A stretch of DNA of 64,000 bases from assembly GCA_001774945.1 (NCBI GenBank), contig MFBL01000015.1:529-64528 (forward strand), read 5' to 3'. This document shows, piece by piece, positions 526 to 63,873 of the stretch. This stretch comes from Candidatus Curtissbacteria bacterium RIFCSPHIGHO2_12_FULL_41_17 (GTDB taxonomy: Bacteria; Patescibacteriota; Microgenomatia; Curtissbacterales; GWA2-41-24). The notes under the pieces are model-generated. The model was not told where the DNA came from and searched no databases. It saw only the letters and a program-made list of their open reading frames with translations. Each line of letters starts with the position of its first letter. Position 1 is the stretch's first letter. The position numbers and the translations under genes were made by a program.

Positions 526-720
526 TCAGCAGGGAGAGCAGAGCCTAAAAATGGTGGTTAGAAGGCTGATGGCAACGGCCAGGACAAGCAGTAAAAGAGA
601 TACTAAAATGGCCATTTTAAGGCCAAATTTTCTTTTTACAAACAGAAACCCTTTAACTATGCCAAATGCGATTAAGGCAATTGCCGCAAAACCGATGATG
701 GTATAGAGTGAATCTTCCAT
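526..720 (-). CDS. small hydrophobic membrane protein (hypothetical)
   Basis: 64-aa ORF with two clearly hydrophobic segments. Its ATG is formed by the last bases of the upstream repeat element (..GGAAGTTTATG). Confidence 0.35.
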   Translation of the reverse strand: MEDSLYTIIGFAAIALIAFGIVKGFLFVKRKFGLKMAILVSLLLLVLAVAISLLTTIFRLCSPC

Positions 721-865
721 AAACTTCCGAGGACTAAGAGTCCTCGGTATTCTCCTTAAAGTTTACATGAGCGAGCAGATACCTTAGTCCTCGCAAGTAT
801 GTATTCGCTTTCGCATTCATCCGTCGAGTCAGACTCGACGGTGTTCTGCGAGCGAATATAAAATT
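719..865 (-). repeat. ~150-nt multi-hairpin intergenic repeat, copy A
   Basis: The reverse complement is about nine-tenths identical to 11532-11680. It contains hairpins CCGTCGAGTC..GACTCGACGG and CCGAGGACT-CTT-AGTCCTCGG. It starts on the stop codon of the upstream co-oriented CDS. Confidence 0.85.
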
Positions 866-5814: not shown

Positions 5815-6738
5815 ATGGATCCAATTTCTAAAGAGAAAACTCTAGAGAGATTAACCAAGGCCCAGAGTGTTTCTATAATTATTTCAGACAATTCTGGGTT
5901 TGACGGACTAGCCTCAGGTTTAGGCTTATATCTTTCACTGACCAAAATTGGTAAAAATATCTCTGTTTATGCCAAACATCCAACTGTTAGTGATGCTTCA
6001 AAACTTTACGCAGTAGACAAAATCGGCAGATCTGGCGAGGGAAAAAATTTAGTTATCAATATCGATAATGCAGTTAACACAGTTGATAAAGTTACTTATT
6101 TTTTAAATCACGATAAATTAAAAATAGTTATTCATCCACTGACCGGGACAAACGGGGCTTCAACTGAACAAATTTCATTTGAGCATGCACCTTCAAAATC
6201 GGATTTACGTTTTGTCATCGGGTTCAAAACGGCAGAAGAATTGAATAAAGAATTTGTTCATGAGCAAACTTTTAGTTCAGATTCATGGACAGTCAGCATT
6301 TCATTAGAAGAAATGAATCAAAAATTTGCTCATGCAAGCGTTGGCAACCCTCAAGCGACTAGTTTAAGCGAGTTAACAGCAAACCTCTTAAGAGATTTAG
6401 CCTTGCCTCTCGATGAGGATACAGCCTACAATTTATATACCGGTATCGCTCATTCTACCAATAATTTTGATGTTGCCAAATCAACACCGGCGACCCTCGA
6501 AATTGCCTCTTGGCTAATCAAATTTGGAGCAGGTAGAGCCAGTTTTGCGCAAAAATCACAACCCGCATACGAAACACCACTCTCTTCTCCCGTTGGCTCA
6601 TTTCCAGCAACCTCCGACAGCTTTAAGCAGGTAGACGAGGTTTCTATCGATCAGGTCGAATTTGAAAAATCTCAAAAAGAGTGGCTTAAACCGCCAAAAA
6701 TTTACAAGGGCTCTAAATCTTTTGACACTGAGCATTAG
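5815..6738 (+). CDS. DHH/NrnA-like protein with degenerate motifs (hypothetical)
   Basis: 307-aa ORF in the position often held by a DHH phosphoesterase after infB. SIIISDNSGFDGLASGLGLYLSL resembles DHH motifs I/II, but the catalytic Asp/His residues are not obvious. Confidence 0.4.
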   Translation: MDPISKEKTLERLTKAQSVSIIISDNSGFDGLASGLGLYLSLTKIGKNISVYAKHPTVSDASKLYAVDKIGRSGEGKNLVINIDNAVNTVDKVTYFLNHDKLKIVIHPLTGTNGASTEQISFEHAPSKSDLRFVIGFKTAEELNKEFVHEQTFSSDSWTVSISLEEMNQKFAHASVGNPQATSLSELTANLLRDLALPLDEDTAYNLYTGIAHSTNNFDVAKSTPATLEIASWLIKFGAGRASFAQKSQPAYETPLSSPVGSFPATSDSFKQVDEVSIDQVEFEKSQKEWLKPPKIYKGSKSFDTEH

Positions 6739-6759
6739 ATTAGATATACTGATTTTCTC

Positions 6760-7023
6760 ATGAGCGATACATCAAAAAAGCAAGTAATAGATAAATTTAA
6801 AACGCACGAGGGCGATACAGGATCTCCGGAAGTCCAGATTGCCTTACTTTCCCAAAGAATCGAGAAGGTTAAGGATCATTTAAAATCACACGGACATGAT
6901 AATCATTCACGAAGGGGTTTGCTTTCTATGATAAATAAACGTAGAAGACTTCTCCACTATTTAACGAGAAAGGCAGAGGATAGATATAAGGATATTATCG
7001 GTAAGCTTGGCTTACCCCAATAA
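6760..7023 (+). CDS. rpsO: 30S ribosomal protein S15
   Basis: GDTGSPEVQIALLSQRIEKVKDHLKSHGHDNHSRRGLLSMINKRRRLLHYL is a typical S15 sequence. Immediately upstream of pnp. Confidence 0.95.
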   Translation: MSDTSKKQVIDKFKTHEGDTGSPEVQIALLSQRIEKVKDHLKSHGHDNHSRRGLLSMINKRRRLLHYLTRKAEDRYKDIIGKLGLPQ

Positions 7024-7245
7024 TATCCTTGCGGTGCTCGCTCAGTAACACTGAGCTGCGCGCCTAAAAGATATTATTGGTAAGTTAGGACTGCCAAAAT
7101 AGAAATAAGCAGCGCTTGCTATTTATCTATTATTGACTTAAAATATAACAGGGAATTGGGTTGTTGGAAGTTGAATAGTTCGAATCAATTTTTTTGATTC
7201 TCACTATCCGATTTCTAACTCCCGTAAATTCTCCAAGAATTTATA

Positions 7246-9432
7246 ATGCAAAAAACAGTCCGTAAAGAAATTGATCTTGCTGGAAAGAAACTCATTTTAG
7301 AAAGCGGCGAACTTGCAACTCAGGCAAATGCCTCCGTTTTAGCAAGCTACGGAGAAACCGTACTTTTAGCTACTGCTGTTTCCAAAAAAGCACCACCTGA
7401 TATGGACTTTTTTCCGCTTGCCGTTGATTATGAGGAGAGGCTATATGCTGGCGGAAAAATATCCACCTCAAGATTTATCAAAAGAGAAGGAAGACCATCC
7501 GAGAAAGCTATTTTAACAGCAAGGTTGATAGACAGGTCTATAAGACCTCTTTTCCCAAAAGACTACCAAGCCGAGGTTCAGGTTGTAATAACCGTATTAT
7601 CATTCGATCAGGAAAACGATCCCGATATTGTTGCCCTAATTGCCGCTTCCTGTGCCCTTTCACTTTCCGACATTCCCTGGAACGGTCCGATATCTGGTCT
7701 TAGAATAGGCAGACAAAACGGAGGTTATATTTTAAACCCGACAGATGCTGAAAAAGATTTTTCCAGTCTTGATCTGATTTTGGCATCCAATAAAGAAGAA
7801 GTGGTAATGATTGAAGCCGGGGCAAATGAAGTCGATGAAGAGTCTGTTATTGGAGCAATTAAGTTTGGAATTGATCATGGAAAAAACGTTATTAAACTGA
7901 TTGAAGATTTAACCAAAGAAGCCGGGAGAGAAAAACAGAAATACGAAAGAGTAAGTCTTGGAGAAAATAAGGATAAAATAATTAGGGAATTTATCGCAAA
8001 AAACATTATTAGTGGTCTTGAAAAACCGGAAGTTTCTCAAGACGAAAATTGGTTTAGCTATCAATTAACAAAACTTGAAGAAGAATTTATCAAAGAAGAA
8101 GAGAAACAAATTACTTCAAAATGGCTAGCAGGCATTTTAGACGAGGCAGTTTCCGACTTCTTAAGGAAACGCATCTTGCAAGACAAAAAACGAATTGATG
8201 GCAGATCTCCGGACGATATCAGGCCAATAACCGCAAGAGTCGGTATTCTGCCAAGAACTCATGGATCCGGGCTTTTCCAAAGAGGTGATACTCAAGTCTT
8301 ATCGATTGTTACCTTAGCATCTCCCGCCTTGGAACAACTGATTGAAGGGATGACCGGCGAGGGGACCAAGAAGTATATGCATCATTACAATTTTCCGCCG
8401 TTTTCAACCGGCGAAGTAAGACGTCTTGGCCCGCCGGGAAGAAGAGAGATTGGCCACGGAGCTTTAGCGGAAAGGGCTCTCTTACCCGTTTTGCCTTCAC
8501 AAGAAGACTTTCCATACACACTGCGGGTAGTTTCAGAAGTCTTATCTTCTGCAGGTTCAACATCAATGGCTTCCGCTTGTGGTTCTACTTTGGCGTTAAT
8601 GGATGCTGGTGTTCCCATAAAAGAACCGGTGGCAGGAATTTCAATCGGCTTAATTTGCGACAAGAAAGACAGGTCAAAATATGTAACATTGGTAGACATA
8701 GCTTACCAGGAAGATTCCCAGGGAGATATGGATTTTAAAGTAGCCGGCACCAAAAACGGCATTACCGCTATTCAAATGGATATTAAGTTGGATGGAATTC
8801 CAACCAGTATTGCAAAAGAAGCGCTAATGAAGGCTAAAAAAGCAAGACTTTCTATTCTTGAAACTATCATAAAAACGATCCCTGCCGCTAGAGAAAAAAT
8901 TTCACCTCATGCTCCCACTGTTATTTTAATAAAGATAGACCCTGCAAAAATTGGCGCTGTTATTGGTTCCGGTGGGCGAACAATTAATAAAATCATCGCC
9001 GAGACGGGTGCGGCTATAGATATTGACGACCAGGGTATTGTAACGGTAAGCGGGAAAGACGTCCAAGCATGTCAGACTGCAGCCAAAATTATTGAAGGAA
9101 TTGTAAAAGAAGCCGAGGTCGGTGAAATTTATGAGGGTGCAGTCAAAAGAATTCTTCCATTTGGCGCCATGGTCGAAATATTGCCCGGCAAAGAAGGTCT
9201 AGTTCACATTTCCCAAATTGCCAACTATCGAGTTGCCAAAGTCGAAGACGAGTTGAAGATAGGACAAAAGGTAAAAGTTAGGGTAGCGGAAATTGATGAT
9301 CAGGGTAGGGTAAATCTCTCCATGAAGTTTCAAGACGAGAGGCAGGGTTTAGGAACCAAAAGCGATGATTTTCCCAAAAGGAATTTTAGAAAAAAATTCG
9401 ACTATGGACCAGGCAGAAAACATAAAAAGTAA
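7246..9432 (+). CDS. pnp: polyribonucleotide nucleotidyltransferase (PNPase)
   Basis: 728 aa with two RNase PH-like regions, a KH domain (GAVIGSGGRTINKI) and an S1 domain (GEIYEGAVKRILPFGAMVEILPGKEGLVHISQI). Confidence 0.95.
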   Translation: MQKTVRKEIDLAGKKLILESGELATQANASVLASYGETVLLATAVSKKAPPDMDFFPLAVDYEERLYAGGKISTSRFIKREGRPSEKAILTARLIDRSIRPLFPKDYQAEVQVVITVLSFDQENDPDIVALIAASCALSLSDIPWNGPISGLRIGRQNGGYILNPTDAEKDFSSLDLILASNKEEVVMIEAGANEVDEESVIGAIKFGIDHGKNVIKLIEDLTKEAGREKQKYERVSLGENKDKIIREFIAKNIISGLEKPEVSQDENWFSYQLTKLEEEFIKEEEKQITSKWLAGILDEAVSDFLRKRILQDKKRIDGRSPDDIRPITARVGILPRTHGSGLFQRGDTQVLSIVTLASPALEQLIEGMTGEGTKKYMHHYNFPPFSTGEVRRLGPPGRREIGHGALAERALLPVLPSQEDFPYTLRVVSEVLSSAGSTSMASACGSTLALMDAGVPIKEPVAGISIGLICDKKDRSKYVTLVDIAYQEDSQGDMDFKVAGTKNGITAIQMDIKLDGIPTSIAKEALMKAKKARLSILETIIKTIPAAREKISPHAPTVILIKIDPAKIGAVIGSGGRTINKIIAETGAAIDIDDQGIVTVSGKDVQACQTAAKIIEGIVKEAEVGEIYEGAVKRILPFGAMVEILPGKEGLVHISQIANYRVAKVEDELKIGQKVKVRVAEIDDQGRVNLSMKFQDERQGLGTKSDDFPKRNFRKKFDYGPGRKHKK

Positions 9433-9441: not shown

Positions 9442-10455
9442 ATGATTGGGACCCCACGCCCAGAAGCTTACCGCAAGTTAAAACAATTTCCTATATTTGA
9501 AAATAAGTGGTTGATTTTAACGATATTTGTTATCCTTCTTTTAGTAATTTTTGTTATTTCTTCCAAATTCACAAATGCCGGCACAGGTTTAGAAATTACG
9601 CCAATTGGTAATAAATTTAGGCTCAATTTTCAAATACCCAAAAATGATCAAGAAAACTTTTCCCGCACACTATCCCAACTCAATCTGCCTCAAGAGGTAA
9701 AGGAAGGGGTCGAGTTTGAACTTGACGCAACCTCATCTGCCGCGCTTGCTTTTGCTTCACCAATAAATGCCAAATTAAATTTTAAAACGAAGCAAGTTAA
9801 AATCAAAGGTTTGACAAATTCAACCTCGCCAGTTTTATTTTTACCCGAAAGCTTTAAGCTGCCTCAATCAACAAAATTGGCTATTTTTGCGCCAGATATA
9901 AAGAATTTCCTTGATAGTCAGGTGAATATCCCGCCGGAACTTACCAGTTTTATAAATAATCTATTTTCCCAGAGAGGTCAGCTGCTTGCATTTTATAATG
10001 ACAATGATTTTCTTATGATTACAAAAGCAAACCAAGTCAATTTTGATGATCTTAGCAATTTAAAGATTCCCAAGGAAGAAGAATTTTATAAAAGAGAGCA
10101 GATTGAAGAATCTTTTGAAACTCACCTTTTAAAACTTCCCCAAAAAACAGAAAGTCAAAAATCTACACTGTCTATTTTCCAATTAGGGCAATGGATTTTT
10201 ATTGCGTCCTCGCAAGAGGCGGCACGCAAGTTTATTCAGGTACAAAAATTTGAAAAAGGCGCGATAGAATTTCCCAAAAGCAAACAAGCTACTTTAGTAG
10301 TTTTAATAAAAAATCCAGATATTGATACCGCAAGTTCTCTTGGGCAAATTTTACTAAGCTCAAAAAAAGATTGGCTGAATATATTCTCAAACATACAGGA
10401 ATTGGAATTTGTTTTGAAGGGCAATGTGTTTTCTGGTTTAATTAATCTAAAGTGA
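9442..10455 (+). CDS. N-terminally anchored hypothetical protein
   Basis: 337-aa ORF with one N-terminal hydrophobic helix (WLILTIFVILLLVIFVISS). No family recognised. Confidence 0.6.
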   Translation: MIGTPRPEAYRKLKQFPIFENKWLILTIFVILLLVIFVISSKFTNAGTGLEITPIGNKFRLNFQIPKNDQENFSRTLSQLNLPQEVKEGVEFELDATSSAALAFASPINAKLNFKTKQVKIKGLTNSTSPVLFLPESFKLPQSTKLAIFAPDIKNFLDSQVNIPPELTSFINNLFSQRGQLLAFYNDNDFLMITKANQVNFDDLSNLKIPKEEEFYKREQIEESFETHLLKLPQKTESQKSTLSIFQLGQWIFIASSQEAARKFIQVQKFEKGAIEFPKSKQATLVVLIKNPDIDTASSLGQILLSSKKDWLNIFSNIQELEFVLKGNVFSGLINLK

Positions 10456-11513
10456 ATTCAACTACTGCCCAATTCGAGGACATAAAACTTCTTGAGGATA
10501 AACTCAAATCAGCCAAAATCCCGCTGGATTTATACCAAAAAACGCAAGTAACGATCGAGCGGCTTACCAGGCTCGCGAAAACATCTTCTTATTCTCAAGA
10601 ATATGATCTTGTCACAAGATATTTGGAATGGATTGTTTCCTTACCATGGGATAAAAAAAGCGATGATATCCTATCGCTTGATAAAGCCCGCCAGGTTCTA
10701 AACGCCAATCATTACGGTCTTGACCAAATCAAGGAGAGGATACTCGAATATATTGCGGTTGCAATGTTAAAAAAGGATCAACCTGAAAGTACATCAAAAA
10801 ACAATAAAGCCCCCGCTCTTCTTTTAGTAGGGTTAGTTGGAACCGGTAAGACTACTATGGCTTATTCGATTGCCCAAACATTGGGCCGGCAGTTTGGAAG
10901 AATCCCGATGGGCGGTATGGGGGATGCATTACAGCTTAGAGGGAGATCACGCACCTTTCCGGATGCAGAACCAGGTCTTATAATGAAGGTACTTAGAAGA
11001 GTAGGCACCAAGAATCCTGTAATACTTCTTGACGAAATTGATCGGGTAACAGAAGAGGCCAGAGCAGACATCATGGGAGTGCTGGTGGAACTATTAGACC
11101 CTGAACAAAATAGTAAATTTCTTGACCATTTTATCGATTACCCGTTTGACCTATCCCAGGTACTCTTTATTGCAACTGCTAACAACACGGCAGGGATAGC
11201 GACAGCTGTACTGGACCGATTGGAGCTATTAGAAATGCCGTCTTATACTGATGAGCAGAAAACAATAATAGGCAAAAATTATCTTCTGCCGCGAGCCCTT
11301 GCAGCTTCTGGGCTTTCAAAAGAAGACCTAGTCTTGGAAGAGAATATTTGGCATCAAATTGTAAGACCATTGGGTTTTGATGCTGGTATGAGAACATTGG
11401 ACAGGACAATTAATGGTATTTGCCGAAAAATCGCCAAATTAAAAGTAGAAGAGAAAGTAGAAAGAGTTAATATAACAGGCGATAATCTCAAAGAATTTTT
11501 GCCCTCATGGTAA
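10452..11513 (+). CDS. Lon-like AAA+ ATPase module without a protease domain
   Basis: The Lon-type pre-AAA segment (LEWIVSLPWDKKSDD...NHYGLDQIKERILEYIAV), Walker A (GLVGTGKTT) and Walker B (VILLDEIDR) are present. The ORF stops where the Lon protease domain would begin. The GTG start overlaps the previous stop. Confidence 0.75.
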   Translation: MNSTTAQFEDIKLLEDKLKSAKIPLDLYQKTQVTIERLTRLAKTSSYSQEYDLVTRYLEWIVSLPWDKKSDDILSLDKARQVLNANHYGLDQIKERILEYIAVAMLKKDQPESTSKNNKAPALLLVGLVGTGKTTMAYSIAQTLGRQFGRIPMGGMGDALQLRGRSRTFPDAEPGLIMKVLRRVGTKNPVILLDEIDRVTEEARADIMGVLVELLDPEQNSKFLDHFIDYPFDLSQVLFIATANNTAGIATAVLDRLELLEMPSYTDEQKTIIGKNYLLPRALAASGLSKEDLVLEENIWHQIVRPLGFDAGMRTLDRTINGICRKIAKLKVEEKVERVNITGDNLKEFLPSW

Positions 11514-11531: not shown

Positions 11532-11680
11532 GAGTTTATATTCGCTCGCAGAATACCATCGAGTCAGACTCGACGGATGAATGCGAGAGCGAATACATAC
11601 TTCCGAGGATTGGAAGTATTCTGCTCGCTCATGTAAACTTGAAGAACAATACCGAGGACTCTTAGTCCTCGGAAGTTTAT
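11532..11680 (+). repeat. ~150-nt multi-hairpin intergenic repeat, copy B
   Basis: Same element as 719-865 in inverted orientation. Hairpins lie at 11556-11576, 11598-11618 and 11652-11672, with enclosing stems TATTCGCTCGC/GCGAGAGCGAATA and TAAACTT/AAGTTTA. Confidence 0.85.
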
Positions 11681-11778: not shown

Positions 11779-13860
11779 ATGAGAAGGTATCGCAGAAACA
11801 AAATTGTATCGCCTCTAAATTTAGAAAAAAAGACAATAATGTCTATTTTAGGGGTTGTGACTTTAGCTTTTTCTGTACTGCTGCTCCTCTCATTTTTTAC
11901 CCAGGCGGGTATTTTGCTTTCTCTTAGAGCGTCACTATTTAGGGTATTTGGCGTAAGTATAGTTAGTATTCCGCTTTTTGGATTAATTTTCAGCCTGATA
12001 CTCTTTTCTATAAAATCAAGATTTACTAAAATTAATATTATACTTGGTAGTGTTTCACTGGTACTTTCAGCAAATGGACTTCTTGCGCCCTTTTCAACTA
12101 ATCTGGCTGGAGTTTTAGGAGTAACTCTTTATACGACTATTAAATCAATTGTTTCTCCAGTTGGAGCATTTTTTGTTCTAGGTTTTACTTTTCTGGTTTC
12201 AATAATAATTGTTGCAAATACCAGTCTGGATCAGGCACTGACAACCATTACTAATTTTTATAAGTTCATAAGCAGTTTTACTAGAATCACCAAAAGATTT
12301 TTTAAAGTCCATCAACCCAGAATAGTCACAAAGAACCAACAAGAAATTTCTCCTGCGCGCGCAAATCTTCCTAAAAATCTTGACACAACTCTTTCGTCTA
12401 CTTTAGTTGCCAATAGTCCTGCTGATACCAGGGTTTGGGAATATCCTCCATTATCGCTCCTTGCCGATCCCAGAGGCAGTTCGGCAAATAGGGGAAATAT
12501 AAAACAAAATGCCCAGATAATTGAAAAAACTCTTGAAAGTTTTGGTATTGTTGCCCAGGTAGTCGAGGTTAATCCTGGTCCTACAGTCACCCAATATGCC
12601 CTGAAGATTCCAATGGGAACTAAACTTTCTAAAATTCTGACTTTGCAAAATGACCTGGCGCTGGCACTGGCTACTTCTACCGGTAATGTCCGTATCGAAG
12701 CACCTATTCCGGGGAAATCCTTGGTAGGAATTGAAATACCTAATATTTCACCGGACATAGTTTCACTCAAGAGCATTCTTTCAAGCGATGTAATGAGGGG
12801 TACTAAATCAAAACTGGCAGTTGGACTTGGTCCTGATGTTTCTGGAAGCACCGTTATTGCCGATATCGGTAAAATGCCCCATGTTTTAATCGCCGGAACA
12901 ACCGGTTCCGGTAAGTCGGTACTTTTAAATTCGATTATTGCAACTCTTCTTTTTAGAGCAAGCCCCCAGGAAGTCAAATTAATATTGGCCGATCCCAAAA
13001 GAGTGGAACTTACAGAGTATCAGGATATTCCCCACTTACTTACGCCGGTCATAGTTGATGCGGATAAAATTTTATCTAGCCTTAAGTGGGCGATGGCTGA
13101 AATGGAGAGGCGCTATAAATTATTCCATGAAGCTCAGGTGAAAAATATCTCGGGTTATAATGAGTTATCCGGATTTCAGGTTTTACCTTATATTGTCATC
13201 GTCGTAGACGAATTGCATAGCTTAATGGAATTTGCCCCGGTTGAAGTTGAAGATGCAATTTGCCGTATTGCTGCTATGGCTAGGGCAACCGGTATTCATC
13301 TTGTAGTGGCAACCCAAAGGCCATCTGTTGATGTAATAACCGGCCTTATAAAAGCAAACATTCCGTGTAGAATTGCTTTCAATGTTTCTTCAATGGTCGA
13401 TTCGCGTGTAATTATTGACCAGCCTGGAGCAGAAAAATTGCTTGGAAAAGGTGATATGCTCTATGTTCCTCCGGATGCTTCAAAACCGATGAGAATTCAA
13501 GGGGTTTTTGTTTCTGATACGGAGATTAGAAACCTTATCGGTTTTCTTAAAAGGTCTGGAATTACCCCAGAATATGCCCAGGAGGTTACCCAAATGCCTG
13601 TCGGTAAAATTGCTGGAATGGTTGGCGGTGAAATCGACGAGCTCTTTGAGGAAGCGGTAAGGACTATAGTTCAGTACGATCGTGCCTCTGCTTCACTTTT
13701 GCAGCGCAGATTGCGCATCGGCTACGCCCGGGCGGCAAGGCTCTTAGACGAACTCGAGATGGCCGGTATTGTCGGTCCGGGGGAGGGTTCAAAGCCCAGA
13801 GACGTTTTAGTAAAAAATGCAGATGAATACTTTCAAAGTCAAGTTCAAAATTCCTCCTAA
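11779..13860 (+). CDS. ftsK: DNA translocase FtsK
   Basis: N-terminal transmembrane helices, motor domain with GTTGSGKS and VVDELH, and a C-terminal winged-helix gamma domain (ASASLLQRRLRIGYARAARLLDELE). Confidence 0.92.
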   Translation: MRRYRRNKIVSPLNLEKKTIMSILGVVTLAFSVLLLLSFFTQAGILLSLRASLFRVFGVSIVSIPLFGLIFSLILFSIKSRFTKINIILGSVSLVLSANGLLAPFSTNLAGVLGVTLYTTIKSIVSPVGAFFVLGFTFLVSIIIVANTSLDQALTTITNFYKFISSFTRITKRFFKVHQPRIVTKNQQEISPARANLPKNLDTTLSSTLVANSPADTRVWEYPPLSLLADPRGSSANRGNIKQNAQIIEKTLESFGIVAQVVEVNPGPTVTQYALKIPMGTKLSKILTLQNDLALALATSTGNVRIEAPIPGKSLVGIEIPNISPDIVSLKSILSSDVMRGTKSKLAVGLGPDVSGSTVIADIGKMPHVLIAGTTGSGKSVLLNSIIATLLFRASPQEVKLILADPKRVELTEYQDIPHLLTPVIVDADKILSSLKWAMAEMERRYKLFHEAQVKNISGYNELSGFQVLPYIVIVVDELHSLMEFAPVEVEDAICRIAAMARATGIHLVVATQRPSVDVITGLIKANIPCRIAFNVSSMVDSRVIIDQPGAEKLLGKGDMLYVPPDASKPMRIQGVFVSDTEIRNLIGFLKRSGITPEYAQEVTQMPVGKIAGMVGGEIDELFEEAVRTIVQYDRASASLLQRRLRIGYARAARLLDELEMAGIVGPGEGSKPRDVLVKNADEYFQSQVQNSS

Positions 13861-14565: not shown

Positions 14566-14657
14566 CCCAAATTTCAAAGAAATTTGGAAAGGAAAAATGC
14601 GAGTGCGCTAAAAGTCCACAATTGTGGACGATTAACAGCACGAGCAATTTTGACGCT
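14566..14657 (+). repeat. conserved structured 5' leader element, copy 1 (shared with tuf)
   Basis: Aligns with 40232-40320. Hairpin CCAAATTTCAAAGAAATTTGG is identical, the second hairpin covaries (GTCCACAATTGTGGAC versus GTTCTCAATAGAAC), and the tail AGCACGAGCAATTTTGACG is identical and abuts the ATG. Confidence 0.8.
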
Positions 14658-14939
14658 ATGCTGCCCTTAGAACTTTCGCAAATTGTGCTTCTTACTGTTA
14701 TTATCATCCTGACAATATTCTTAGTGGTTTTGGGCTTCCAGGTTTTTTTTGTCCTGAAAGATCTAAGACTTACCCTCAAAAGAATGAATCATCTGTTTGA
14801 TGATGCCAATGAACTTGTATCGGAAGTGAAAAAACCTATCGAAAAGGCTGGCAATTTCTTTACAGCATTGACTGCAGGTGCAGGTATTATGCACTTACTT
14901 AAAAAGGGGTCAAAAAATGAGCGATCACGAGAAAAATAA
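14658..14939 (+). CDS. DUF948-like small membrane protein
   Basis: MLPLELSQIVLLTVIIILTIFLVVLGFQVFFVLKDLRLTLKRMNHLFDDANELV shows a transmembrane helix followed by a coiled-coil segment. The start is placed at the ATG that follows the shared leader; the ORF-track TTG at 14622 lies inside the leader hairpin. Confidence 0.6.
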   Translation: MLPLELSQIVLLTVIIILTIFLVVLGFQVFFVLKDLRLTLKRMNHLFDDANELVSEVKKPIEKAGNFFTALTAGAGIMHLLKKGSKNERSREK

Positions 14940-26135: not shown

Positions 26136-27239
26136 TTGAATATCCCAGTGAATAAAATACTCCAAATCGGTCCACCCTTTATTATTATCGCCGCACTACT
26201 TTGGAGTCTTGACGGACTTTTAAGAAGAAGCCTTTTTGTGTTACCCCCGGCTCTTATTGTGTTTTGGGAACATGTTTTAGGTGCAGTTATATTAATACCA
26301 TTTGTCCTTTTTTTAGGTCTGAAACTAGGCAAAATGACCAAGAAAGAATGGCTGGCAATTGTTTTTGTAAGCCTTTTCTCTGGAGCCCTCGGAACTATTT
26401 TTTATACGGCGGCTCTTGGTAAAGTTAATTATATCCAGTTTTCGGTTGTAGCTATGCTGCAGCAGCTTCAGCCAATCTGGACCATTACAACCGCAGCTAT
26501 TATCCTAAAAGAAAAATTGACAGGCAATTTTTTAAGGTGGGCAGCATTGGCACTTATTGCTTCTTATTTTGTTACCTTTAGGGATTTAAAAGTTAATCTT
26601 GAAAGCGGCAGCCAAACAATAGTTGCTGCAGGATTTGCTCTTGCGGCTGGGATGATGTGGGGTTCATCAACCGCATTTTCCAAAGTGGTCTTAAAGCAAG
26701 TTTCGTTTATAACGGCCACTTTTTTAAGGTTTATGGCATTGGCACTTATTGCTTCTTATTTTGTTACCTTTAGGGATTTAAAAGTTAATCTTGAAAGCGG
26801 CAGCCAAACAATAGTTGCTGCAGGATTTGCTCTTGCGGCTGGGATGATGTGGGGTTCATCAACCGCATTTTCCAAAGTGGTCTTAAAGCAAGTTTCGTTT
26901 ATAACGGCCACTTTTTTAAGGTTTATGATAGCACCTATATTTGCCCTGCTTTTTTTAGTTGGTTCAAATAAGGGCAGCAGTCTTTTTGCAATCACATTGC
27001 CTCAGGCATTTACACTGCTTGTTATTACTCTCACAACCGGAATGGTTGCTCTTCTTATTTATTATTTTGGCTTAAAAAAAACACCGGCTAGAGTTAGCAC
27101 AATTTTAGAACTTGTCTGGCCTGCTTCGGCAATTTTTATTGACTATGTTTATTTCAAAAAAACTTTATCGACGACTCAGCTGTTGGGGGTTTTTGTATTA
27201 CTTTTTGCAATTTACCAAGTGTCTAAATTCAAAAAGTGA
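26136..27239 (+). CDS. EamA/DMT-family transporter carrying an internal 64-aa tandem duplication
   Basis: Polytopic membrane protein with EamA-like repeats. The segment ALALIASYFVTF...ATFLRFM occurs twice, identically. Confidence 0.8.
   Translation: MNIPVNKILQIGPPFIIIAALLWSLDGLLRRSLFVLPPALIVFWEHVLGAVILIPFVLFLGLKLGKMTKKEWLAIVFVSLFSGALGTIFYTAALGKVNYIQFSVVAMLQQLQPIWTITTAAIILKEKLTGNFLRWAALALIASYFVTFRDLKVNLESGSQTIVAAGFALAAGMMWGSSTAFSKVVLKQVSFITATFLRFMALALIASYFVTFRDLKVNLESGSQTIVAAGFALAAGMMWGSSTAFSKVVLKQVSFITATFLRFMIAPIFALLFLVGSNKGSSLFAITLPQAFTLLVITLTTGMVALLIYYFGLKKTPARVSTILELVWPASAIFIDYVYFKKTLSTTQLLGVFVLLFAIYQVSKFKK
26544..26927 (+). repeat. perfect 2 x 192-bp in-frame tandem duplication inside the DMT gene
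   Basis: 26544-26735 equals 26736-26927 base for base. The junctions share the microhomology TTTTTTAAGGT (26528, 26720, 26912). Confidence 0.9.
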
Positions 27240-34861: not shown

Positions 34862-35344
34862 ATGCCTACTATTAACCAACTTATCAGAAAAGGCAGAAAA
34901 CCAAAAATTAAAAGAGTGAGGGCCACGGCGCTTAGACGTGCCTTTAATTCTCTTAAAAACCGATACGTATACTATCCGGCAAGCCAGAAAAGAGGGGTGT
35001 GTGTGGTTGTCAAAACCATGACTCCCAAAAAACCTAATTCTGCTCTAAGAAAAGTAGCTAGAGTCCGTCTTTCCAATAAGCAGGAAATTACCGCTTATAT
35101 TCCGGGCATTGGTCATGAACTTGCAGAACACTCAGTTGTTTTAATACGGGGTGGTCGCGTCAGAGATCTGCCCGGAGTAAAATATCATGTTATTCGCGGG
35201 AAATATGATACTACTGGAGTAGTTGGCCGAAAGCAAGCAAGATCGCTGTATGGAACCAAAAAATCAGGTGCGGTTACCGGTGCCCAGGCAGCAGCTACAG
35301 TTGGTGCCACCGCAGCCGCAGCGCAGCCACCACCAGAAACTTAA
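34862..35344 (+). CDS. rpsL: 30S ribosomal protein S12 with Ala/Pro-rich C-terminal tail
   Basis: [51 protein letters not shown]. About 25 extra C-terminal residues ([25 protein letters not shown]). Confidence 0.95.
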
Positions 35345-35352
35345 GTATGAAA

Positions 35353-35405
35353 ACTTATCACTTATCACTCATCACTTATCACTTATCACTGCGACCGAAG
35401 GGAGC
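35353..35405 (+). repeat. heptamer array (ACTTATC x5) plus conserved CGACCGAAGGGAGC box upstream of rpsG
   Basis: Units lie at 35353, 35360, 35367 (ACTCATC), 35374 and 35381. The box at 35392-35405 contains the SD. The same architecture occurs upstream of rpsC. Confidence 0.85.
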
Positions 35406-35408
35406 ATC

Positions 35409-35906
35409 ATGCCCAGAGCAGGAAAGGTAGAAAAAAAACAAATTGCTCCGGATCCCCTTTACCAAAGTTCGCTTGTTGCTAAACTAATCAATAAAGTAAT
35501 GGTCAGCGGCAATAAGTCTCTCGCCCAGAGAGTAGTTTATGATGCGCTCGAAAGTTTAAAATCTGGCGGGCAAGATCCAGTCAAAACCCTAGATAAGGCA
35601 GTTGAGAATATTACGCCAAGAATGGAGGTTAGACCAAGAAGGGTTGGCGGTGCATCTTATATGGTTCCCATGGAAGTCAGGGGATCAAGACGGCTTTCAT
35701 TGGCAATTTCATGGCTGGTTAATGCCGCCAGAAGCAGGAAAGCTTCGGACATTACTCCCAAACCTAAGAATAAGCCCTTAATTATTGCCAAGTTGTCCCA
35801 AGAAATACTGCAAGCATCAGAGAATACCGGCAAGGCAGTCGCCAAAAAAGACGAAATGCACCGCATAGCCGAAGCGAACAAAGCTTTCGCCCATTTCAGA
35901 TGGTAA
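35409..35906 (+). CDS. rpsG: 30S ribosomal protein S7
   Basis: MPRAGKVEKKQIAPDPLYQS.LVAKLINKVM..GNKS and ...ANKAFAHFRW. The ATG at 35409 is preceded by AAGGGAGC. The ORF-track start at 35223 lies inside rpsL. Confidence 0.95.
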   Translation: MPRAGKVEKKQIAPDPLYQSSLVAKLINKVMVSGNKSLAQRVVYDALESLKSGGQDPVKTLDKAVENITPRMEVRPRRVGGASYMVPMEVRGSRRLSLAISWLVNAARSRKASDITPKPKNKPLIIAKLSQEILQASENTGKAVAKKDEMHRIAEANKAFAHFRW

Positions 35907-36117
35907 GCCGGAGTTTACACTGAGCTTGTCGAAGTGCGCATTCCCGCTGGTAATGTGCTCAGCCTTGCGGTCCTCGTCCTTCGTTAAACTCAGGACTGCG
36001 GGCCTAAAAGCTTTCGCCCACTTCCGCTGGTAGCGAAATGTGGTTTGCCGCCTTGCGATAGCTCCGCACTACGCGCGTAGTAGCTATCTAAAGGCGTTTG
36101 CACATTTCCGGTGGTAA
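35907..36117 (+). repeat. array of displaced rpsG 3'-end copies separated by GC-rich palindromic inserts
   Basis: KAFAHFRW-stop is re-encoded at 36007-36033 and 36091-36117 with synonymous differences only. A degenerate copy (AHSRW-stop) lies at 35936-35953. Confidence 0.85.
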
Positions 36118-36122
36118 TTTCC

Positions 36123-37067
36123 CTACAACGAGAATAAATCTAGCACTTGCTTTTTTCCTGTCATGGCTAAATCAAATATCTTTTCCCGATCTTGGGAAAT
36201 TCTTGAGATGGGCATCTCGGAAGGAGCAATAATCCCAATATTTATTGAATCTCCATGCAATCCAATTAGCTCTGCCGCTCGCGAATATTGTTTATGTCTT
36301 GCTAACATAGCAGTTCTAAATTCGGAGGAAAACTTACGCATATATACACTTGTAAGTAAACGTTCTAATAAACTGGCCCCATTTGCTCGCTCGCCTACAG
36401 TATTATTCAAAACCACCAATATATCTGTACACCCTTCCTGTATTGCTAAATCGATTGGAATACCATTCCCTATAGAACCATCACTGTACTTTTTTCCATT
36501 AATACTTATGGTACGGTTATAAACAATAGGAAATGCCGAGGAAGCGATGACTACTTTGACAATATCACACTCCTCTTTCACATCTATAAACTCACTTTTG
36601 CCCGTTTGGGCATCCGTAACGACAATAAAAAAACTCGAACGGGATGACCTAATTGTTTCCTGATCAAGCGGTTTTGTCTTTCGCATTATGTGTTCAGCAT
36701 AATCAAGGTCTAAAACACGCCTTAGACGCCTAACATCGATGAATCTTCTGTCCACTAAATCTTCATGCCAAAGCGAAGCTCCTAACTCTGTCTGTTTAGC
36801 AAGAAAATAAGCAAGGTCAGCAGCCCCAGACGAAACACCGACAACAACATCAAAAGTGTCATGGAAACCCAATTGTTCTAGGCCAACAAGTACTCCGGCA
36901 CCAAATGCTCCACGCACCCCACCGCCACCCATTACTAATGCGGTTTTAATCCTCTCGTGTGTATTGTCACCTTGATCAAGCAGTCTCTTTTTCTCAAGTA
37001 AATTTCTCACGAGCGTTGAATTTCTCGCTGATTCACCTTCTAAAACTTTGGAGCGTAATCTTTCCAT
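36123..37067 (-). CDS. patatin-like phospholipase
   Basis: Oxyanion motif GGGGVRGAFGAGVL, nucleophile elbow GVSSGA (GxSxG), and the catalytic Asp context DGSIGNGIP. Confidence 0.85.
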   Translation of the reverse strand: MERLRSKVLEGESARNSTLVRNLLEKKRLLDQGDNTHERIKTALVMGGGGVRGAFGAGVLVGLEQLGFHDTFDVVVGVSSGAADLAYFLAKQTELGASLWHEDLVDRRFIDVRRLRRVLDLDYAEHIMRKTKPLDQETIRSSRSSFFIVVTDAQTGKSEFIDVKEECDIVKVVIASSAFPIVYNRTISINGKKYSDGSIGNGIPIDLAIQEGCTDILVVLNNTVGERANGASLLERLLTSVYMRKFSSEFRTAMLARHKQYSRAAELIGLHGDSINIGIIAPSEMPISRISQDREKIFDLAMTGKKQVLDLFSL

Positions 37068-37287
37068 GGCTAAAATTGTAGCAAAAATAGTTCTTTAAGA
37101 GAAAAATCTTCTCTCTTGCATACTCATTTAACTTAAGATATAATTCCCGACTAGTTTGTACTTATCTGCCGGTCTTCGACCCTGAGGGCTCAGACCCGAA
37201 TGGGCAGGCAGGCGCCTGTCAAACGCCTAATTTAGCTTCCGCCTGGCTAAATCCAAAGAAGAATTTTTATATTTGGGAAATGATATA

Positions 37288-37316
37288 TTGACTTTTGGCA
37301 GGGTTTTATTGATAAA
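37288..37316 (+). promoter_or_regulatory. candidate promoter TTGACT-17-GATAAA
   Basis: TTGACT at 37288-37293, a 17-nt spacer, and GATAAA at 37311-37316, upstream of the ORF at 37328. Confidence 0.3.
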
Positions 37317-37327
37317 AGAGTAAGATC

Positions 37328-37606
37328 ATGAAAATAATTTCATTATCAAAGGCACAAAAACTGAAAAGCCTTAGAAAAAAACTCACGGAGCTTGAGGAAG
37401 TTAAGCTAAAAGAGGCTTTGGCTAAGTATGGGGAAGCCTACCAGGAGTCAGGAGCGGCCTGGCAGGAAAATGCCGCCTGGGAGCTGGCAGACGAAGAAGT
37501 GTCGGTTATTCGGGCAATGATTTCGGAAATAAAAAGAGAAATCACCGGTTTGGAACATCCTCTTCCTACTACTTCCATCCCGCTCACTATTAAAAAACAA
37601 AAATAA
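37328..37606 (+). CDS. small coiled-coil protein (hypothetical)
   Basis: 92-aa ORF of helical, charged sequence. No family recognised. Confidence 0.45.
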   Translation: MKIISLSKAQKLKSLRKKLTELEEVKLKEALAKYGEAYQESGAAWQENAAWELADEEVSVIRAMISEIKREITGLEHPLPTTSIPLTIKKQK

Positions 37607-37642
37607 TCCAAATTAGAAAAATATATGACGCAAACTGCTGAT

Positions 37643-37791
37643 CAATTTATTTTCGCTTCGCGAAAACCGTGGATTATTAATCCTCGGATGAAGCGAAGGG
37701 AAAACATACTTCCAAGGAAGTTTGGAGCCTAGACCAAAGACGAATGATATGATAGGTGAAAACCGAGGGTTCTTAACTCTCGGAAGTTTAT
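37643..37791 (+). repeat. ~150-nt multi-hairpin intergenic repeat, diverged copy C
   Basis: Collinear with copy B, with the same stem positions but different stem sequences (TTCGCTTC/GAAGCGAA, CCGTGGATT/AATCCTCGG, ACTTCC/GGAAGT, CCGAGGGTT/AACTCTCGG). The terminal CGGAAGTTTAT is identical. Confidence 0.7.
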
Positions 37792-37833
37792 TTTGCAACA
37801 CAAAAAGACATATTTAGCTTGGAGGAAAAAATA

Positions 37834-39975
37834 ATGGCCGAAAAACAAGCCAGACTTTATTCGCTGGACAGAATAAGAAATATAGGCATCATTGCTCATA
37901 TCGACGCGGGAAAAACGACCACTACCGAGAGAATCCTTTTTTACACAGGTAGGACCTATAAACTCGGAAATATCGATGAAGGCACCACCGTTACCGACTG
38001 GATGGCTCAGGAAAAAGAAAGGGGAATTACGATTGTATCGGCTGCCGTAACAACATTTTGGAAACCCAAAGATGGCCCGTTTGCCAACATTGACACACGT
38101 ATAAACATTATTGACACCCCGGGGCATGTCGATTTTACTGCCGAGGTTGAAAGATCACTGCGTGTTCTAGATGGAGGAGTCACCGTTCTTGATGCAGAAG
38201 AGGGGGTCCAGTCACAATCGGAAACAGTCTGGCGCCAAGCCGACAAATATAAAGTTCCCCGTATTTGTTTCGTTAATAAGATGGATAAAATCGGCGCAGA
38301 TTTTTTCGCAACGCTCTCCTCGATCCGCAAAAAATTACAGGCACCGGCAGTTGCCTACAATTTACCAATCGGCAAGGAAAATGATTTTAAGGGAGTTATC
38401 GATTTACTAACACAAAAGGCCTATATTTGGGAAGAAGAGGCTGTCAAAAAAGGAGGAATGGATTTTGTCAAGGTACCCATCCCAAGTGAATTGCTTGCTG
38501 AAACCGAAAAACATAGAGCCCACTTAATTGAAAAAATTGCAGAATGTGACGATAGTCTTGTGGAAAAATACCTTAAGGGTGAAGAATTGGGAATAGACGA
38601 ACTTAAATCAGCACTTCGACGTGCAGTCATCGAATATAAAATAGTTCCCGTGCTTGCAGGTTCCAGTCTACGCAATAAAGGTGTTCAAATGCTTCTTGAC
38701 GCAACTGTAGAATACTTACCTTCTCCTTTAGATATAGAAACGGTAGAGGGTATTAATCCTAAAACAGGTGAGAAGGAGATCCGCAAACAAGTAGTCGAAG
38801 CTCCATTTTGTGCCTTGGCATTTAAAGTCCAGATCGATCCGCATGTCGGTAAATTAAATTTCATCAGAATTTATTCGGGAACACTAAAATCCGGTACTTC
38901 TGTTTTGAATACGACAAAAAGGGAACATGAAAGAGTCGGCAGAATTTTACTAATGCATGCCAATACCAGAGAAGAGATTGCCGAAGCATACGCAGGAGAA
39001 ATTGTGGCAGTTGTCGGACTTAAATCAACCACCACAGGAGACACGCTCTGCGCTGAAAATTCTCCGATTATTTTAGAATCGATTTCGTTTCCGGACCCGG
39101 TCATTTCACTGGCAATTGAGCCAAGTACAAAGGCTGATCAGGAGAAACTTGGTTACGCTTTGGGCCGGCTTTCCGAGGAAGATCCGACGTTTAAGATTAA
39201 AGGTGATCCGGAAACCGGGCAAACAATTATTTCCGGAATGGGAGAACTGCATCTGGAAATCCTGGTTGACAGAATGAAGAGAGAGTTTGCAGTCGCTGCC
39301 AAAGTCGGCAGTCCGCAAGTTGCTTACAAGGAAACCATTAGAGAAACAGGCAGAGGTGAAGGTAAATATATTCGGCAGTCCGGTGGCAGAGGCCAATACG
39401 GGCACTGTTTTTTGAGGGTTGAGCCTAATCCTCGCGGTGAGGGTTATCAATTCGTTTCCGAGATTAGAGGTGGCGCTATTCCGCAAGAGTTTATTTCCTC
39501 AGTAGAAAAAGGAGTTCGCGAAAAAATGGAAACCGGGGTTTTAGCTGGATATCCGATGGTCGATATAAAGGTAGCAGTTTATGATGGTACTTATCATGAC
39601 GTTGACTCTTCCGATATTGCTTTTAAAATCGCCGGCTCTCTTGCTTTGGAAGAAGCCGTCAAAAATGCCAGTCTTGCGCTTTTGGAACCGATCATGAAAG
39701 TGGAAGTGACCATTCCCGAAGAATTCATGGGTGATGTAATTGGGGATTTATCTGCCAAGCGTGCTCAAATACTTTCAAGCGAACATCGGGCAAACAGCGT
39801 GATTATTACAGCCCTTGTGCCGCTTGCAGAGATGTCCGGCTATGTTACAACTCTTAGGTCTATGACTCAAGGGAGAGGATCAGCATATATGGAACCGTCA
39901 CATTACGAAGAAGTTCCCCAGAGTATAGCAGACAAAATCGTAGCAAGGGCCAAAGGTGAGGTAAAAGAAAGTTAG
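37834..39975 (+). CDS. fusA: elongation factor G
   Basis: [40 protein letters not shown]. The ATG at 37834 is preceded by GGAGG. The ORF-track TTG at 37819 would include the SD. Confidence 0.95.
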
Positions 39976-40231: not shown

Positions 40232-40320
40232 CCCAAATTTCAAAGAAATTTGGAGAGGAAAAATTTGAGTGCGTTTAATGTTCTCAATAGAACATGAATA
40301 GCACGAGCAATTTTGACGAC
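40232..40320 (+). repeat. conserved structured 5' leader element, copy 2 (tuf)
   Basis: See 14566-14657. An SD-like GGAGAGG is followed by a short uORF whose TGA overlaps an in-frame ATG at 40294. Confidence 0.8.
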
Positions 40321-41505
40321 ATGGCAGCAGAAAAATTTGAACGAACAAAACCACACGTAAATATTGGCACGATTGGCCATGTTGATCATGGTAAAACTAC
40401 GCTGACCAGTGCTATTACTCAGGTCCTATCCAAAAAAGGTCTGGCTCAGGCGAAATCCTTTGATCAGATAGATAATGCCCCGGAAGAGAAACAAAGAGGA
40501 ATTACTATTAATATTACTCATGTGGAGTACGAAACGGAAAAGCGTCACTATGCCCACATTGATGCCCCCGGCCATGCCGACTACATCAAAAACATGATTA
40601 CAGGTGCCGCCCAAATGGACGGTGCAATTCTGGTTGTAAGCGCTCCGGACGGGCCGATGCCGCAGACGAGAGAGCATGTTCTTTTGGCCAGACAGGTAAA
40701 CGTTCCGGCAATCGTAGTTTTTCTAAACAAAACGGATATGGTTCAGGATGCAGAACTTTTGGATCTTGTGGAACTTGAGGTGCGCGAACTTCTGGATAAA
40801 TATCAGTTTGATGGAAAAAATGCGACAATCATTCGCGGTTCGGCACTTAAAGCGATTGAAGGAGATGCACAAGCCGTTAAAGCGATTGAAGACTTAATGG
40901 CCGCAGTTGATGAAAAAATCCCCACTCCCGCAAGGGATTTAGACAAACCTTTCCTGATGCCGGTTGAAGATGTCTTTTCCATAAAAGGCCGAGGGACTGT
41001 TGTTACAGGCAGAGTTGAACGGGGCGTTATAAAAGTCAATGAGGAGATCGAAATTGTCGGAATTAGACCTACAAAAAAAACTATTGTAACAGGAGTAGAA
41101 ATGTTTAGAAAAGAGCTAGACCAGGGACAAGCCGGTGACAATATCGGCGTACTACTTCGAGGGATTGAAAAAGATGACGTTGAAAGAGGGCAGGTTTTGG
41201 CAAAGCCCGGCTCGACAACACCGCATACCGAATTCGAGGCAGAGGTGTATATCCTAACTAAAGAAGAAGGCGGACGACACACCCCCTTCTTTACCGGTTA
41301 TAGACCCCAGTTTTATATAAGAACGACCGATGTTACCGGAGAAGCAACTCTTCCCGAAGGAACAGAAATGGTTATGCCGGGAGACAATATTAAAATGAAA
41401 GTTAAACTTATCGAGCCGGTTGCTATGGAAGAAGGACTTAGATTTGCCATCCGCGAGGGTGGCCACACAGTAGGCGCCGGCGTAGTCAGCAAGATAATTG
41501 CGTAA
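40321..41505 (+). CDS. tuf: elongation factor Tu
   Basis: [41 protein letters not shown]. The start is placed at the canonical EF-Tu N-terminus. The alternative ATG at 40294 would add MNSTSNFDD. Confidence 0.95.
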
Positions 41506-54102: not shown

Positions 54103-54345
54103 ATGGCAAAACCAGGTATTATTGAAATTGAAGGTGAGGTAACCGAAGCTTTGCCCAACACGATGTTTAGGGTGATGGTAAAAACTGGACAAATTCCATC
54201 TGTCACCGAGGACAAAATTGTTTTATGTCATCTTTCCGGGAAAATGAGAATTCATTATGTGCGTATTTTACCGGGAGATAAAGTAAAACTGGAGATAACT
54301 CCCTATGATTTAACAAAAGGAAGGATAATTTTTAGATACAGATGA
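54103..54345 (+). CDS. infA: translation initiation factor IF-1
   Basis: [18 protein letters not shown]......[38 protein letters not shown]. Confidence 0.95.
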
Positions 54346-63844: not shown

Positions 63845-63873
63845 TTTTCTTCTTGTGTTAAAATTCCATACTG

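Follow-up and report, generated by a model that had tools for sequence, protein, structure and literature searches.

A 64,000-nucleotide stretch of DNA from Candidatus Curtissbacteria bacterium RIFCSPHIGHO2_12_FULL_41_17 (contig MFBL01000015.1, positions 529 to 64,528; hereafter the window) carries three copies, A, B and C, of a short and strongly folding repeat without an open reading frame (ORF). We show that this repeat belongs to a family of at least 177 copies in genome and metagenome contigs, of which 146 are non-redundant after removal of identical locus duplicates. Its termini, its target and its subterminal hairpins suggest, with a probability that we put at roughly 0.6, that the family is a Curtissbacteria-specific, ORF-less, non-autonomous element of the IS200/IS605 'peel-and-paste' type, similar to the palindrome-associated transposable elements (PATEs). 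That kind of element is already known; neither Rfam nor the literature searched contains this particular family, with its distribution among hosts and its intricate set of covarying helices.

Insertion boundaries and target site

The anatomy of the element and its presence or absence at orthologous sites are seen directly in comparisons of filled and empty loci (loci outside the window are given L numbers). The inserted DNA, its limits fixed by five such comparisons, is exactly 5'-ATTCGC...GGAAGTTTAT-3', directly 3' of a TTTAT-like pentamer. For example, the filled site of L144 reads CCCTTCATTCAT, then the element from ATTCGCTGCAG to GGAAGTTTAT, then AACCGCAAAA, and the empty site of L076 joins CCCTTCATTCAT straight to AACCGCAAAA; read through, L144 runs from CCCTTCATTCAT into the element (ATTCGCTGCAG...CGGAAGTTTAT) and on into AACCGCAAAATT, and its close relative L076 has CCCTTCATTCATAACCGCAAAAAT. 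The same junctions separate L097 (filled) from L180 (empty), which share 86% flank identity, and in filled L139 the flank resumes exactly at the continuation of four empty relatives, namely the window, L171, L033 and L096. No target-site duplication is present in L144/L076, in L097/L180 or in L139 against its four empty relatives, and the 5' pentamer already stands in the empty sites. Since these comparisons place the pentamer outside the insert, the first five bases (TTTAT) of the aligned repeat are target and not element.

Of 108 distinct copies, 85 have TTTAT as their 5' pentamer and the others have ATTAT, CTTAT, TCTAT, GTTAT or TTCAT, near-cognate variants. The 3' end stays TTTAT in these variant copies, a constancy to be read with the fact that both collection patterns demanded a 3' GTTTA(T), and the two pentamers differ in 7 of 48 copies; a variable 5' pentamer beside a constant 3' TTTAT is unlike the outcome of a duplication. 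The last bases of the element are its own TTTAT, and in L085, where three elements follow one another, the terminal TTTAT of one doubles as the 5' pentamer of the next. The two termini, ATTCGCTCGCAG (5') and the reverse complement of ATAAACTTCCGAGG (3'), are unrelated, and there are therefore no terminal inverted repeats. Each end has a subterminal hairpin, P2 lying 16 nt from the 5' end and H5 lying 8 nt from the 3' end.

An earlier note on this DNA had paired 719–865, in reverse complement, with 11532–11680, and the pairing holds over its full length with about 12 substitutions and one 2-nt indel; by a repeat finder the arms are 93% (788–862/11535–11609) and 95% (719–779/11620–11680) identical. 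Its passing mention of three copies also proved right, as a third, diverged copy lies at 37646–37791 (plus strand) upstream of fusA, and a three-block pattern made of the conserved unpaired stretches occurs at exactly three sites in the window, with none expected. The copies, their parts and two empty sites are as follows.

719–857, minus strand: copy A, element proper, type 1; 160.4 bits with covariance model R1
821–841 (P2), 848–858 with 802–814 (P1), 759–780 (mid block), 727–747 (H5) and 719–726 (tail), minus strand: parts of copy A
858–862, minus strand: TTTAT target pentamer of copy A, 2 nt past the TAA (865–867) of a gene for a 612-aa zinc-ribbon protein
11540–11680, plus strand: copy B, element proper, type 1, ATTCGC...GGAAGTTTAT; 161.5 bits (R1), boundaries from the filled/empty comparisons
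11535–11539, plus strand: TTTAT pentamer of copy B, target DNA abutting the 5' end of the element, like a target-adjacent motif (TAM)
11539–11595, plus strand: left-end domain of copy B, with P1 formed by 11539–11549 and 11583–11595
11599–11608, plus strand: ACTTCCGAGG block of copy B, a copy of the 5' strand of the terminal hairpin
11619–11640, plus strand: mid block TTCTGCTCGCTCATGTAAACTT of copy B, complementary to the 5' end region TTTATAT..GCAGAA and, via TAAACTT, to AAGTTTA of the tail
11652–11672, plus strand: right-end hairpin H5 of copy B, 9 bp with a CTT loop, 8 nt from the 3' terminus
11673–11680, plus strand: 3' tail AAGTTTAT of copy B, whose terminal TTTAT is element-encoded, like a transposon-encoded motif (TEM)
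37651–37791, plus strand: copy C, element proper, type 2 (TTTCGCTTCGCGAAAACC...); 116.9 bits (R1)
37667–37687 (P2), 37650–37661 with 37693–37704 (P1) and 37763–37783 (H5), plus strand: parts of copy C
37646–37650, plus strand: TTTAT target pentamer of copy C
63852–63867, minus strand: empty site, GGAATTTTAA followed by CACAAG, where orthologous L139 reads ATTTTAT, element, CACAT
54342–54345, no strand assigned: empty site at the overlap (ATGA) of the infA stop and rpmJ start, where the spacer of L008 holds an antisense copy

In copy B, P1 encloses an internal loop (AGAATA/ATGAAT) and the hairpin P2 (11556–11576), H5 is flanked by an A-rich tract on its 5' side and by AAGTTTAT on its 3' side, and ACTTCCGAGG can pair with CCTCGGAAGT at 11667–11676, an alternative or pseudoknot pairing that is 93% paired across the family.

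The earlier note had hesitated between a transcribed RNA element and a miniature inverted-repeat transposable element (MITE) with a strict target preference. The second of these is favoured, as the family is multi-copy, lineage-restricted, present or absent at orthologous sites and tied to a defined pentamer; the element is nonetheless no MITE in the usual sense, as it has neither inverted termini nor a target-site duplication.

Copies, subfamilies and genomic context

A pattern scan of one genome per species gave 45 exact matches in 43 loci, whose titles read Candidatus Curtissbacteria, Microgenomates or Patescibacteria or belong to third-party annotation (TPA) bins otherwise labelled. Model R1, built from 48 copies, recognised 51 copies at 72–162 bits in the 43 genome loci and the window, with antisense matches at no more than 28 bits, and at least 126 further copies in at least 119 metagenome loci gathered with a right-end-only pattern. 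This covariance-model scan and a search of Rfam were both steps that the earlier note had proposed; the former expanded the family to at least 177 copies, and the latter returned no family. Up to 14 copies occur in one metagenome-assembled genome (MAG), the pattern alone matching 12 times in MFBV01 and 5 times in MFCA01. The element measures about 105–240 nt, typically 140. As the earlier note had stated, it does not code for protein; no frame remains open throughout the family.

The family divides into several subfamilies. Copies A and B represent type 1 and copy C represents type 2; the others are a form extended in its central region, one marked by TAATCGC, and type 3, which has another terminal hairpin; still more diverged forms are found in L090, in L160 and as the third element of L085. 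Single genomes hold several subfamilies and the same subfamilies recur in different genomes, where they are 88–95% identical across species although their flanks cannot be aligned. Internal-deletion derivatives also occur (L072/L134/L173, L119/L179, L139 and L153/L158), and such deletions, like nested insertions, are decay products typical of selfish repeats. A solo ..ATCATACTACCTCGGAAGTTTAT in L012 (5911–5924, minus strand), lacking the upstream hairpin and the left end and with the CATACTT block joined straight to the 3' end, looks like a remnant in its sequence. Copies in L085 (1534–1370, minus strand) and L073 (7956–8194, plus strand) are interrupted at the identical point, between TGTA and AACTT, by a second, unrelated mini-element, ...GCGGTCCTC...GGGCCTAA, flanked by TA/TAA, which hints at another small mobile family in these genomes. 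Yet another small repeat class lies beside some copies, consisting of GC-rich palindromes of the form (T)GTCAT(T/C)(G/C)CGAGCG(C)AGCGAAG(C/G)AATC (L018 at about 7210–7240, L028 at 685–712 and 7345–7371); the same class occurs in the 5' flanks of the L015 and L032 copies.

Typical copies are carried by TPA MAGs titled 'uncultured Gammaproteobacteria' (L005, L007, L009, L013, L017, L023 and L039), bins that probably bear a wrong label or contain contaminating sequence. A number of public contigs stop inside or beside a copy (L050, L051, L052, L091, L123, L155 and L157), and the repeat probably breaks short-read assemblies of Curtissbacteria genomes.

The window is core housekeeping DNA of a bacterium of the candidate phyla radiation (CPR), as judged from ORF translations read by eye and partly confirmed by Pfam marks, with nusA, infB, pnp, ftsK, alaS, rpoBC, the str and ribosomal-protein operons, recA, RNase Y and HU. 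Copy B lies between a gene for a Lon-like AAA ATPase (10452–11513) and ftsK (11779–13860), and copy C between a 92-aa ORF (37328–37606) and fusA. The str operon is itself interrupted at 35344–37836, the gap between rpsG and fusA holding a patatin-like gene (36123–37067, minus strand), the 92-aa ORF and copy C. All three copies are kept with unchanged spacing in every same-species public contig read (MFBE01000026.1, MFBW01000031.1 and several ENA assemblies), and assemblies GCA_001774845.1 and GCA_001776535.1 carry the copies of the window. None of the genes flanking copies A, B and C adjoins a copy in any other genome examined; conversely, the window is empty where syntenic L008, L033/L171, L139 and L163 are filled.

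The placement had been described as orientation-specific and in operon spacers, and this does not extend to the family as a whole. Among the 146 non-redundant copies, 44 in same-direction gene pairs are co-oriented with the genes and 22 are antisense, 21 copies lie between divergent and 18 between convergent genes (39 in all), against a background of 786 tandem, 134 divergent and 138 convergent gene pairs, and the copy in the infA–rpmJ spacer of L008 is antisense. The gene downstream is co-oriented in 80 cases and not in 46; both counts indicate a placement that is biased and not strict. Downstream genes, identified by eye from translations, are unrelated housekeeping genes that include ftsK, fusA, dnaA, mreB, metK, infC, a release factor and tRNA synthetases. 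A start just after a co-oriented stop codon is true of copy A (2 nt after the TAA) and of copy B (21 nt) and is not a rule of the family. The end of copy A does form an ATG that opens a 64-aa ORF (526–720, minus strand), as had been remarked, but the ORF is itself uncertain because public gene calls on identical contigs annotate an 85-aa ORF on the opposite strand there. Elsewhere, copies in L038 and L125 extend or replace the ends of ORFs, and in L019 a copy (7253–7398, plus strand) sits in antisense orientation within a 458-aa ORF for a multi-pass membrane protein (6602–7978, minus strand) whose frame stays open throughout, adding 48 residues in frame between hydrophobic segments in the manner of a Rickettsia palindromic element.

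Folding and covariation

The hairpins described from the sequence of copies A and B are present: an outer stem TATTCGCTCGC/GCGAGAGCGAATA encloses CCRTCGAGTC-NNN-GACTCGACGG, and TAAACTT/AAGTTTA borders the perfect hairpin CCGAGGACT-CTT-AGTCCTCGG on its two sides. A further hairpin, TACTTCCGAGGATTGGAAGTA, forms in copy B and in no other copy. Relative to shuffled sequences, RNA folding z-scores are −6.6 for copy B, −7.2 for copy A and −3.9 for copy C, and DNA folding gives −6.1 to −8.2 on either strand.

RNAalifold on a raw MAFFT alignment gave a poor consensus because the variable P2 was misaligned, and hand-defined helices were tested instead. In a model-based alignment of 111 copies, the fold consisting of P1, P2, the TAAACTT/AAGTTTA helix and H5 has 93.6% of its cells paired and double changes in 24 of 37 pairs; none of 500 shuffles reaches these values, and partners slid out of register are at most 50% paired. 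Compensatory changes affect all six inner pairs of P2 and seven of the nine pairs of H5, and are likewise abundant in P1. The closing pair of P2 is almost always C-G, while its interior is swapped for unrelated hairpins of 15–30 nt in which pairing is retained. P2 and H5 share on average 13 of 21 positions, and each is preceded by a similar A-rich 5–6-mer. In MFBV01 an identical 30-nt P2, CCCCGCCAAAAATTGAATATTTGGGCGGGG, recurs across subfamilies (L001, L002, L006, L011, L022, L033, L038 and L042), which points either to gene conversion among the copies or to selection of a hairpin particular to that genome.

A second set of pairings is kept as well, joining the 5' end to the mid block and ACUUCCGAGG to the 3' strand of H5 plus the tail. 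Helix 1 between the 5' end and the mid block is 92% paired with four compensated pairs, and this pairing fully covaries in the third element of L085 and in L090/L160. In the type-3 copies of L027 and L038, ACTTCCGAGG and its partner change together to CTCCAGC/GCTGGAG. Moreover, the 5' strand covaries with both of its partners, for example as TAATCGC / GCGATTA / CTCTTGTAAAC in L002, L008, L028 and L029. As the second set competes with P1, the TAAACTT/AAGTTTA helix and H5, the sequence admits two folds. The covarying helices surround unpaired nucleotides that are themselves highly conserved, in the blocks AGAACA, AUGAAU, ACAUACUU and CAUGUAAACUU.

The strong covariation, seen in hand-defined helices with shuffle and slide controls, was foreseen by the earlier note for an RNA; it is equally expected of hairpins read in single-stranded DNA, and the folding data do not tell the one folded molecule from the other. 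The same note had expected an ordinary MITE to show random orientation together with a lack of covariation. The orientation is about 2:1. In a simple scan, H5 resembles a terminator when copies A and B are read in antisense and when copy C is read in sense, H5 of copy C being followed by AAGTTTATTT on the plus strand; the sense tail of type 1, AAGUUUAU, is U-poor.

Mechanism and competing readings

We place the family with the PATEs because its termini are not inverted, its insertion leaves no duplication and lies 3' of a fixed pentamer, its subterminal hairpins are on the same strand and it ends in a terminal motif of its own, and also because TTTAT and TTCAT motifs and trans-mobilised PATEs are documented in Geobacillus stearothermophilus. 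In that species the TAM of IS200/IS605 elements is TTTAT for ISGst2 and TTCAT for ISGst5, and ORF-less PATEs, often carrying omega-RNAs, are mobilised in trans (bioRxiv 10.1101/2023.03.14.532601). The PATEs, kin of ISGst1/ISGst5 with the parents IS608, ISDra2 and ISGst2, and the present family are both short and gene-less, without inverted termini or duplication; both have a hairpin near each end, insert 3' of a fixed pentamer and carry a terminal motif of their own, and in both the copies outnumber any autonomous partner. Unlike PATEs, the family is hosted by a CPR lineage and has no tnpA or tnpB partner with the same ends near its copies; its left hairpin is nested in a covarying P1 beginning with the element's first base, the sequence of that hairpin is freely swapped, and the motif on its left flank equals the terminal motif of the element.

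By its anatomy, the element would be excised from the top strand as single-stranded DNA by a Y1 HUH transposase (TnpA) supplied in trans. The enzyme would recognise the folded hairpins, and short internal 'guide' bases would pair with the TTTAT on either side, that of the target on the left and that of the element end on the right. The excised strand would then be pasted 3' of another TTTAT exposed on the lagging-strand template, from which an excess of copies with a G-rich sense strand would follow. The 8-kb flanks are G-rich on the element strand for 82 copies against 34 (p = 3e-5), a comparison confounded with gene orientation. In read-through transcripts the GC-rich H5, set between A-rich and U-rich tracts, may terminate or stabilise in either direction.

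A number of observations weigh against this PATE-like reading. No transposase-like neighbour recurs among the 1,146 predicted proteins that flank the 177 copies, where the recurring neighbours, judged by eye, are glycosyltransferases, PMT-like membrane proteins, metallo-beta-lactamase-fold proteins and pilins; no long element appears among the approximately 121 right-end matches listed, all of which are short or deletion derivatives; and tblastn with approximate IS200 and IS608 TnpA queries against 1.17 Mb, a weak test, found nothing real. The three window copies are fixed in all public contigs of the species that were read and hence give no sign of recent activity there, and the orientation bias, about 70%, is confounded with gene orientation. 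P2 is so variable that simple base-specific recognition by one transposase is hard to picture. The covarying P1, the pairing of the 5' end with the mid block and that of ACUUCCGAGG with CCUCGGAAGU are not needed for transposition and hint at a constraint at the level of RNA. Finally, the strand that folds is poorly marked: top and bottom DNA strands fold with similar energies and without discrimination, and the balance of G.U over A.C pairs is mixed, favouring top-strand folding for P1 (23:3) and not for P2 (9:9) or H5 (6:6). A marginal tblastn match to TnpA in L030 was discarded, as the sequence there belongs to a 333-aa gene that is unrelated and read from the opposite strand.

Mobility as a non-autonomous element by some other machinery that makes no duplication is possible, if on the whole unlikely. 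The work could be done by a site-specific recombinase of the tyrosine or serine class with TTTAT as its core, by a rolling-circle HUH enzyme like those of IS91 and Helitrons, by a recombinase of the IS110 type, or by reverse transcription of the folded RNA with site-specific integration to follow. The presence/absence pattern, the 5' pentamer, the lack of duplication and the non-inverted termini fit these equally well, direct TTTAT repeats at both junctions are the expected trace of a crossover in a 5-bp core, and no TnpA was seen in the flanks or in the 1.17 Mb. However, paired similar subterminal hairpins with similar 5' flanks are a hallmark of IS200/IS605, and in rolling-circle elements the 3' end alone has a hairpin. 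Furthermore, no recombinase or reverse transcriptase recurs among the predicted proteins near the copies, and the head-to-tail junction GGAAGTTTATWTTCG, a possible trace of circular or tandem forms, is absent from all 181 loci.

It is doubtful, though conceivable, that the copies are dispersed guide-RNA genes whose RNAs a TnpB-, IscB- or TldR-like protein encoded elsewhere in the genomes, of about 1 Mb, uses in trans. As the conserved scaffold (P1/P2, the mid block and the ACUUCCGAGG:CCUCGGAAGU pairing) ends at the boundary, a transcript would continue into the flank as a guide, and the three-way covariation of the 5' strand would in that case be the mark of an RNA fold instead of DNA hairpins. 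Such guides could bring about homing of the element or regulate the adjacent downstream gene, in keeping with the 80:46 excess of copies that point towards a gene start. The omega-RNA (reRNA) of TnpB/IscB systems is about 100–150 nt long and ends exactly at the 3' boundary of the transposon, as the scaffold-like fold does here, and the long-range pairing near the 3' end resembles a guide-adjacent pseudoknot, a likeness of architecture known here from DNA. HEARO/omega-type Rfam models do not match the copies, and no TnpB or IscB is seen among the ORF translations of the window read by eye.

Another improbable reading is a functional RNA selected by the host, either a small RNA or an element acting in cis as terminator, attenuator or stabiliser of mRNA, for which mobility is secondary or absent. 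P1 against the helix of the 5' end with the mid block, and H5 against ACUUCCGAGG:CCUCGGAAGU, could then be alternative conformations of a switch. The strong covariation, the conserved unpaired blocks and the three-way covariation would suit such an RNA, as would the 88–95% identity of subfamilies between species with unalignable flanks, the 80:46 co-orientation of downstream genes, the resemblance of H5 to a bidirectional intrinsic terminator and the 23:3 excess of G.U over A.C in P1. No position is conserved between species, however; one third of the copies in tandem contexts are antisense, including the infA–rpmJ copy, the downstream genes are unrelated, no Rfam family matches, and deletion derivatives and nested insertions are tolerated. 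A pathway-specific riboswitch in particular was rejected because the downstream genes are unrelated, no neighbours are common to the species and a third of the tandem copies are antisense.

A conventional MITE derived from an insertion sequence with a DDE transposase, its inverted repeats being the 5' end (TTTATATTCGCTCGCAGAA) and the mid block (TTCTGCTCGCTCATGTAAA), which match at 15 of 19 positions and covary between subfamilies, with the 3' hairpin as a passenger, is very improbable, given that the element always runs 40 nt past the mid block to a sharp GTTTAT end, and that the filled/empty right boundary, the absence of duplication and true termini without an inverted repeat contradict it.

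These readings are partly compatible, in that a selfish element could also end or stabilise the transcripts that cross it, and a PATE may be the carrier of a guide RNA.

Kinship with other repeats and significance

REP sequences and BIMEs, mobilised by the RAYT (TnpA-REP) Y1 transposases, are read as single-stranded DNA by an HUH enzyme. The present family is like them in consisting of interspersed, intergenic, hairpin-forming repeats whose stems covary and which have a short motif conserved next to a hairpin. REPs, in contrast, are single palindromes of 20–65 nt, usually in inverted pairs and with a GTAG-type motif, whereas the Curtissbacteria element has 140 nt, several helices and defined left and right ends, and occurs singly. 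The BOX, RUP, Correia (CREE) and ERIC repeats, as in streptococci and neisseriae, are multi-copy, intergenic and strongly folding as transcripts, fall into modular subfamilies and can carry terminator-like hairpins; the family resembles them as a structured intergenic repeat whose internal modules are swapped or deleted. Those repeats have either terminal inverted repeats with TA-like duplications (RUP and Correia) or boxA/boxC complementarity, and the Curtissbacteria element has neither inverted termini nor a duplication. The likeness to Rickettsia palindromic elements is the single in-frame copy of L019, in a family that keeps no frame open.

The earlier note had recognised no known family, and for Rfam this holds at gathering and at permissive thresholds: with Rfam 15 only a tRNA in the whole window passes the gathering threshold, and the best permissive matches of copies B and C fall far below it. 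Viral contigs contain no match to two patterns of the family, phage and plasmid collections none by distant blastn, and in the literature on repeats, MITEs and non-coding RNAs of Curtissbacteria and the CPR we found no description of such a repeat family.

The window contains two further duplications. A stretch of some 95 nt that leads into tuf and takes in its ten initial codons is duplicated at 14566–14660 and 40232–40323 with 79–87% identity, and the duplicated leader, a leader or promoter plus start region, precedes a small membrane-protein ORF (14622–14939, MWTINSTSNFDAM...). Within a 367-aa membrane-protein ORF (26136–27239), 192 nt (64 codons) are repeated in perfect tandem at 26520–26903, the two units being 96% identical.

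The family shows that a single kind of mobile element can reach a dozen or more copies in a very small genome, beside core genes such as ftsK, fusA, HU and infA–rpmJ. It is a ready marker for Curtissbacteria contigs, and its copies create spurious ORF extensions and start codons. If the IS200/IS605 reading is true, single-strand 'peel-and-paste' transposition would operate in this lineage, with a TnpA that reads TTTAT and possibly a TnpB with TTTAT as its TAM. If the RNA-like constraints are real, the copies could form a dispersed set of guide or switch RNAs, which would be much more interesting.

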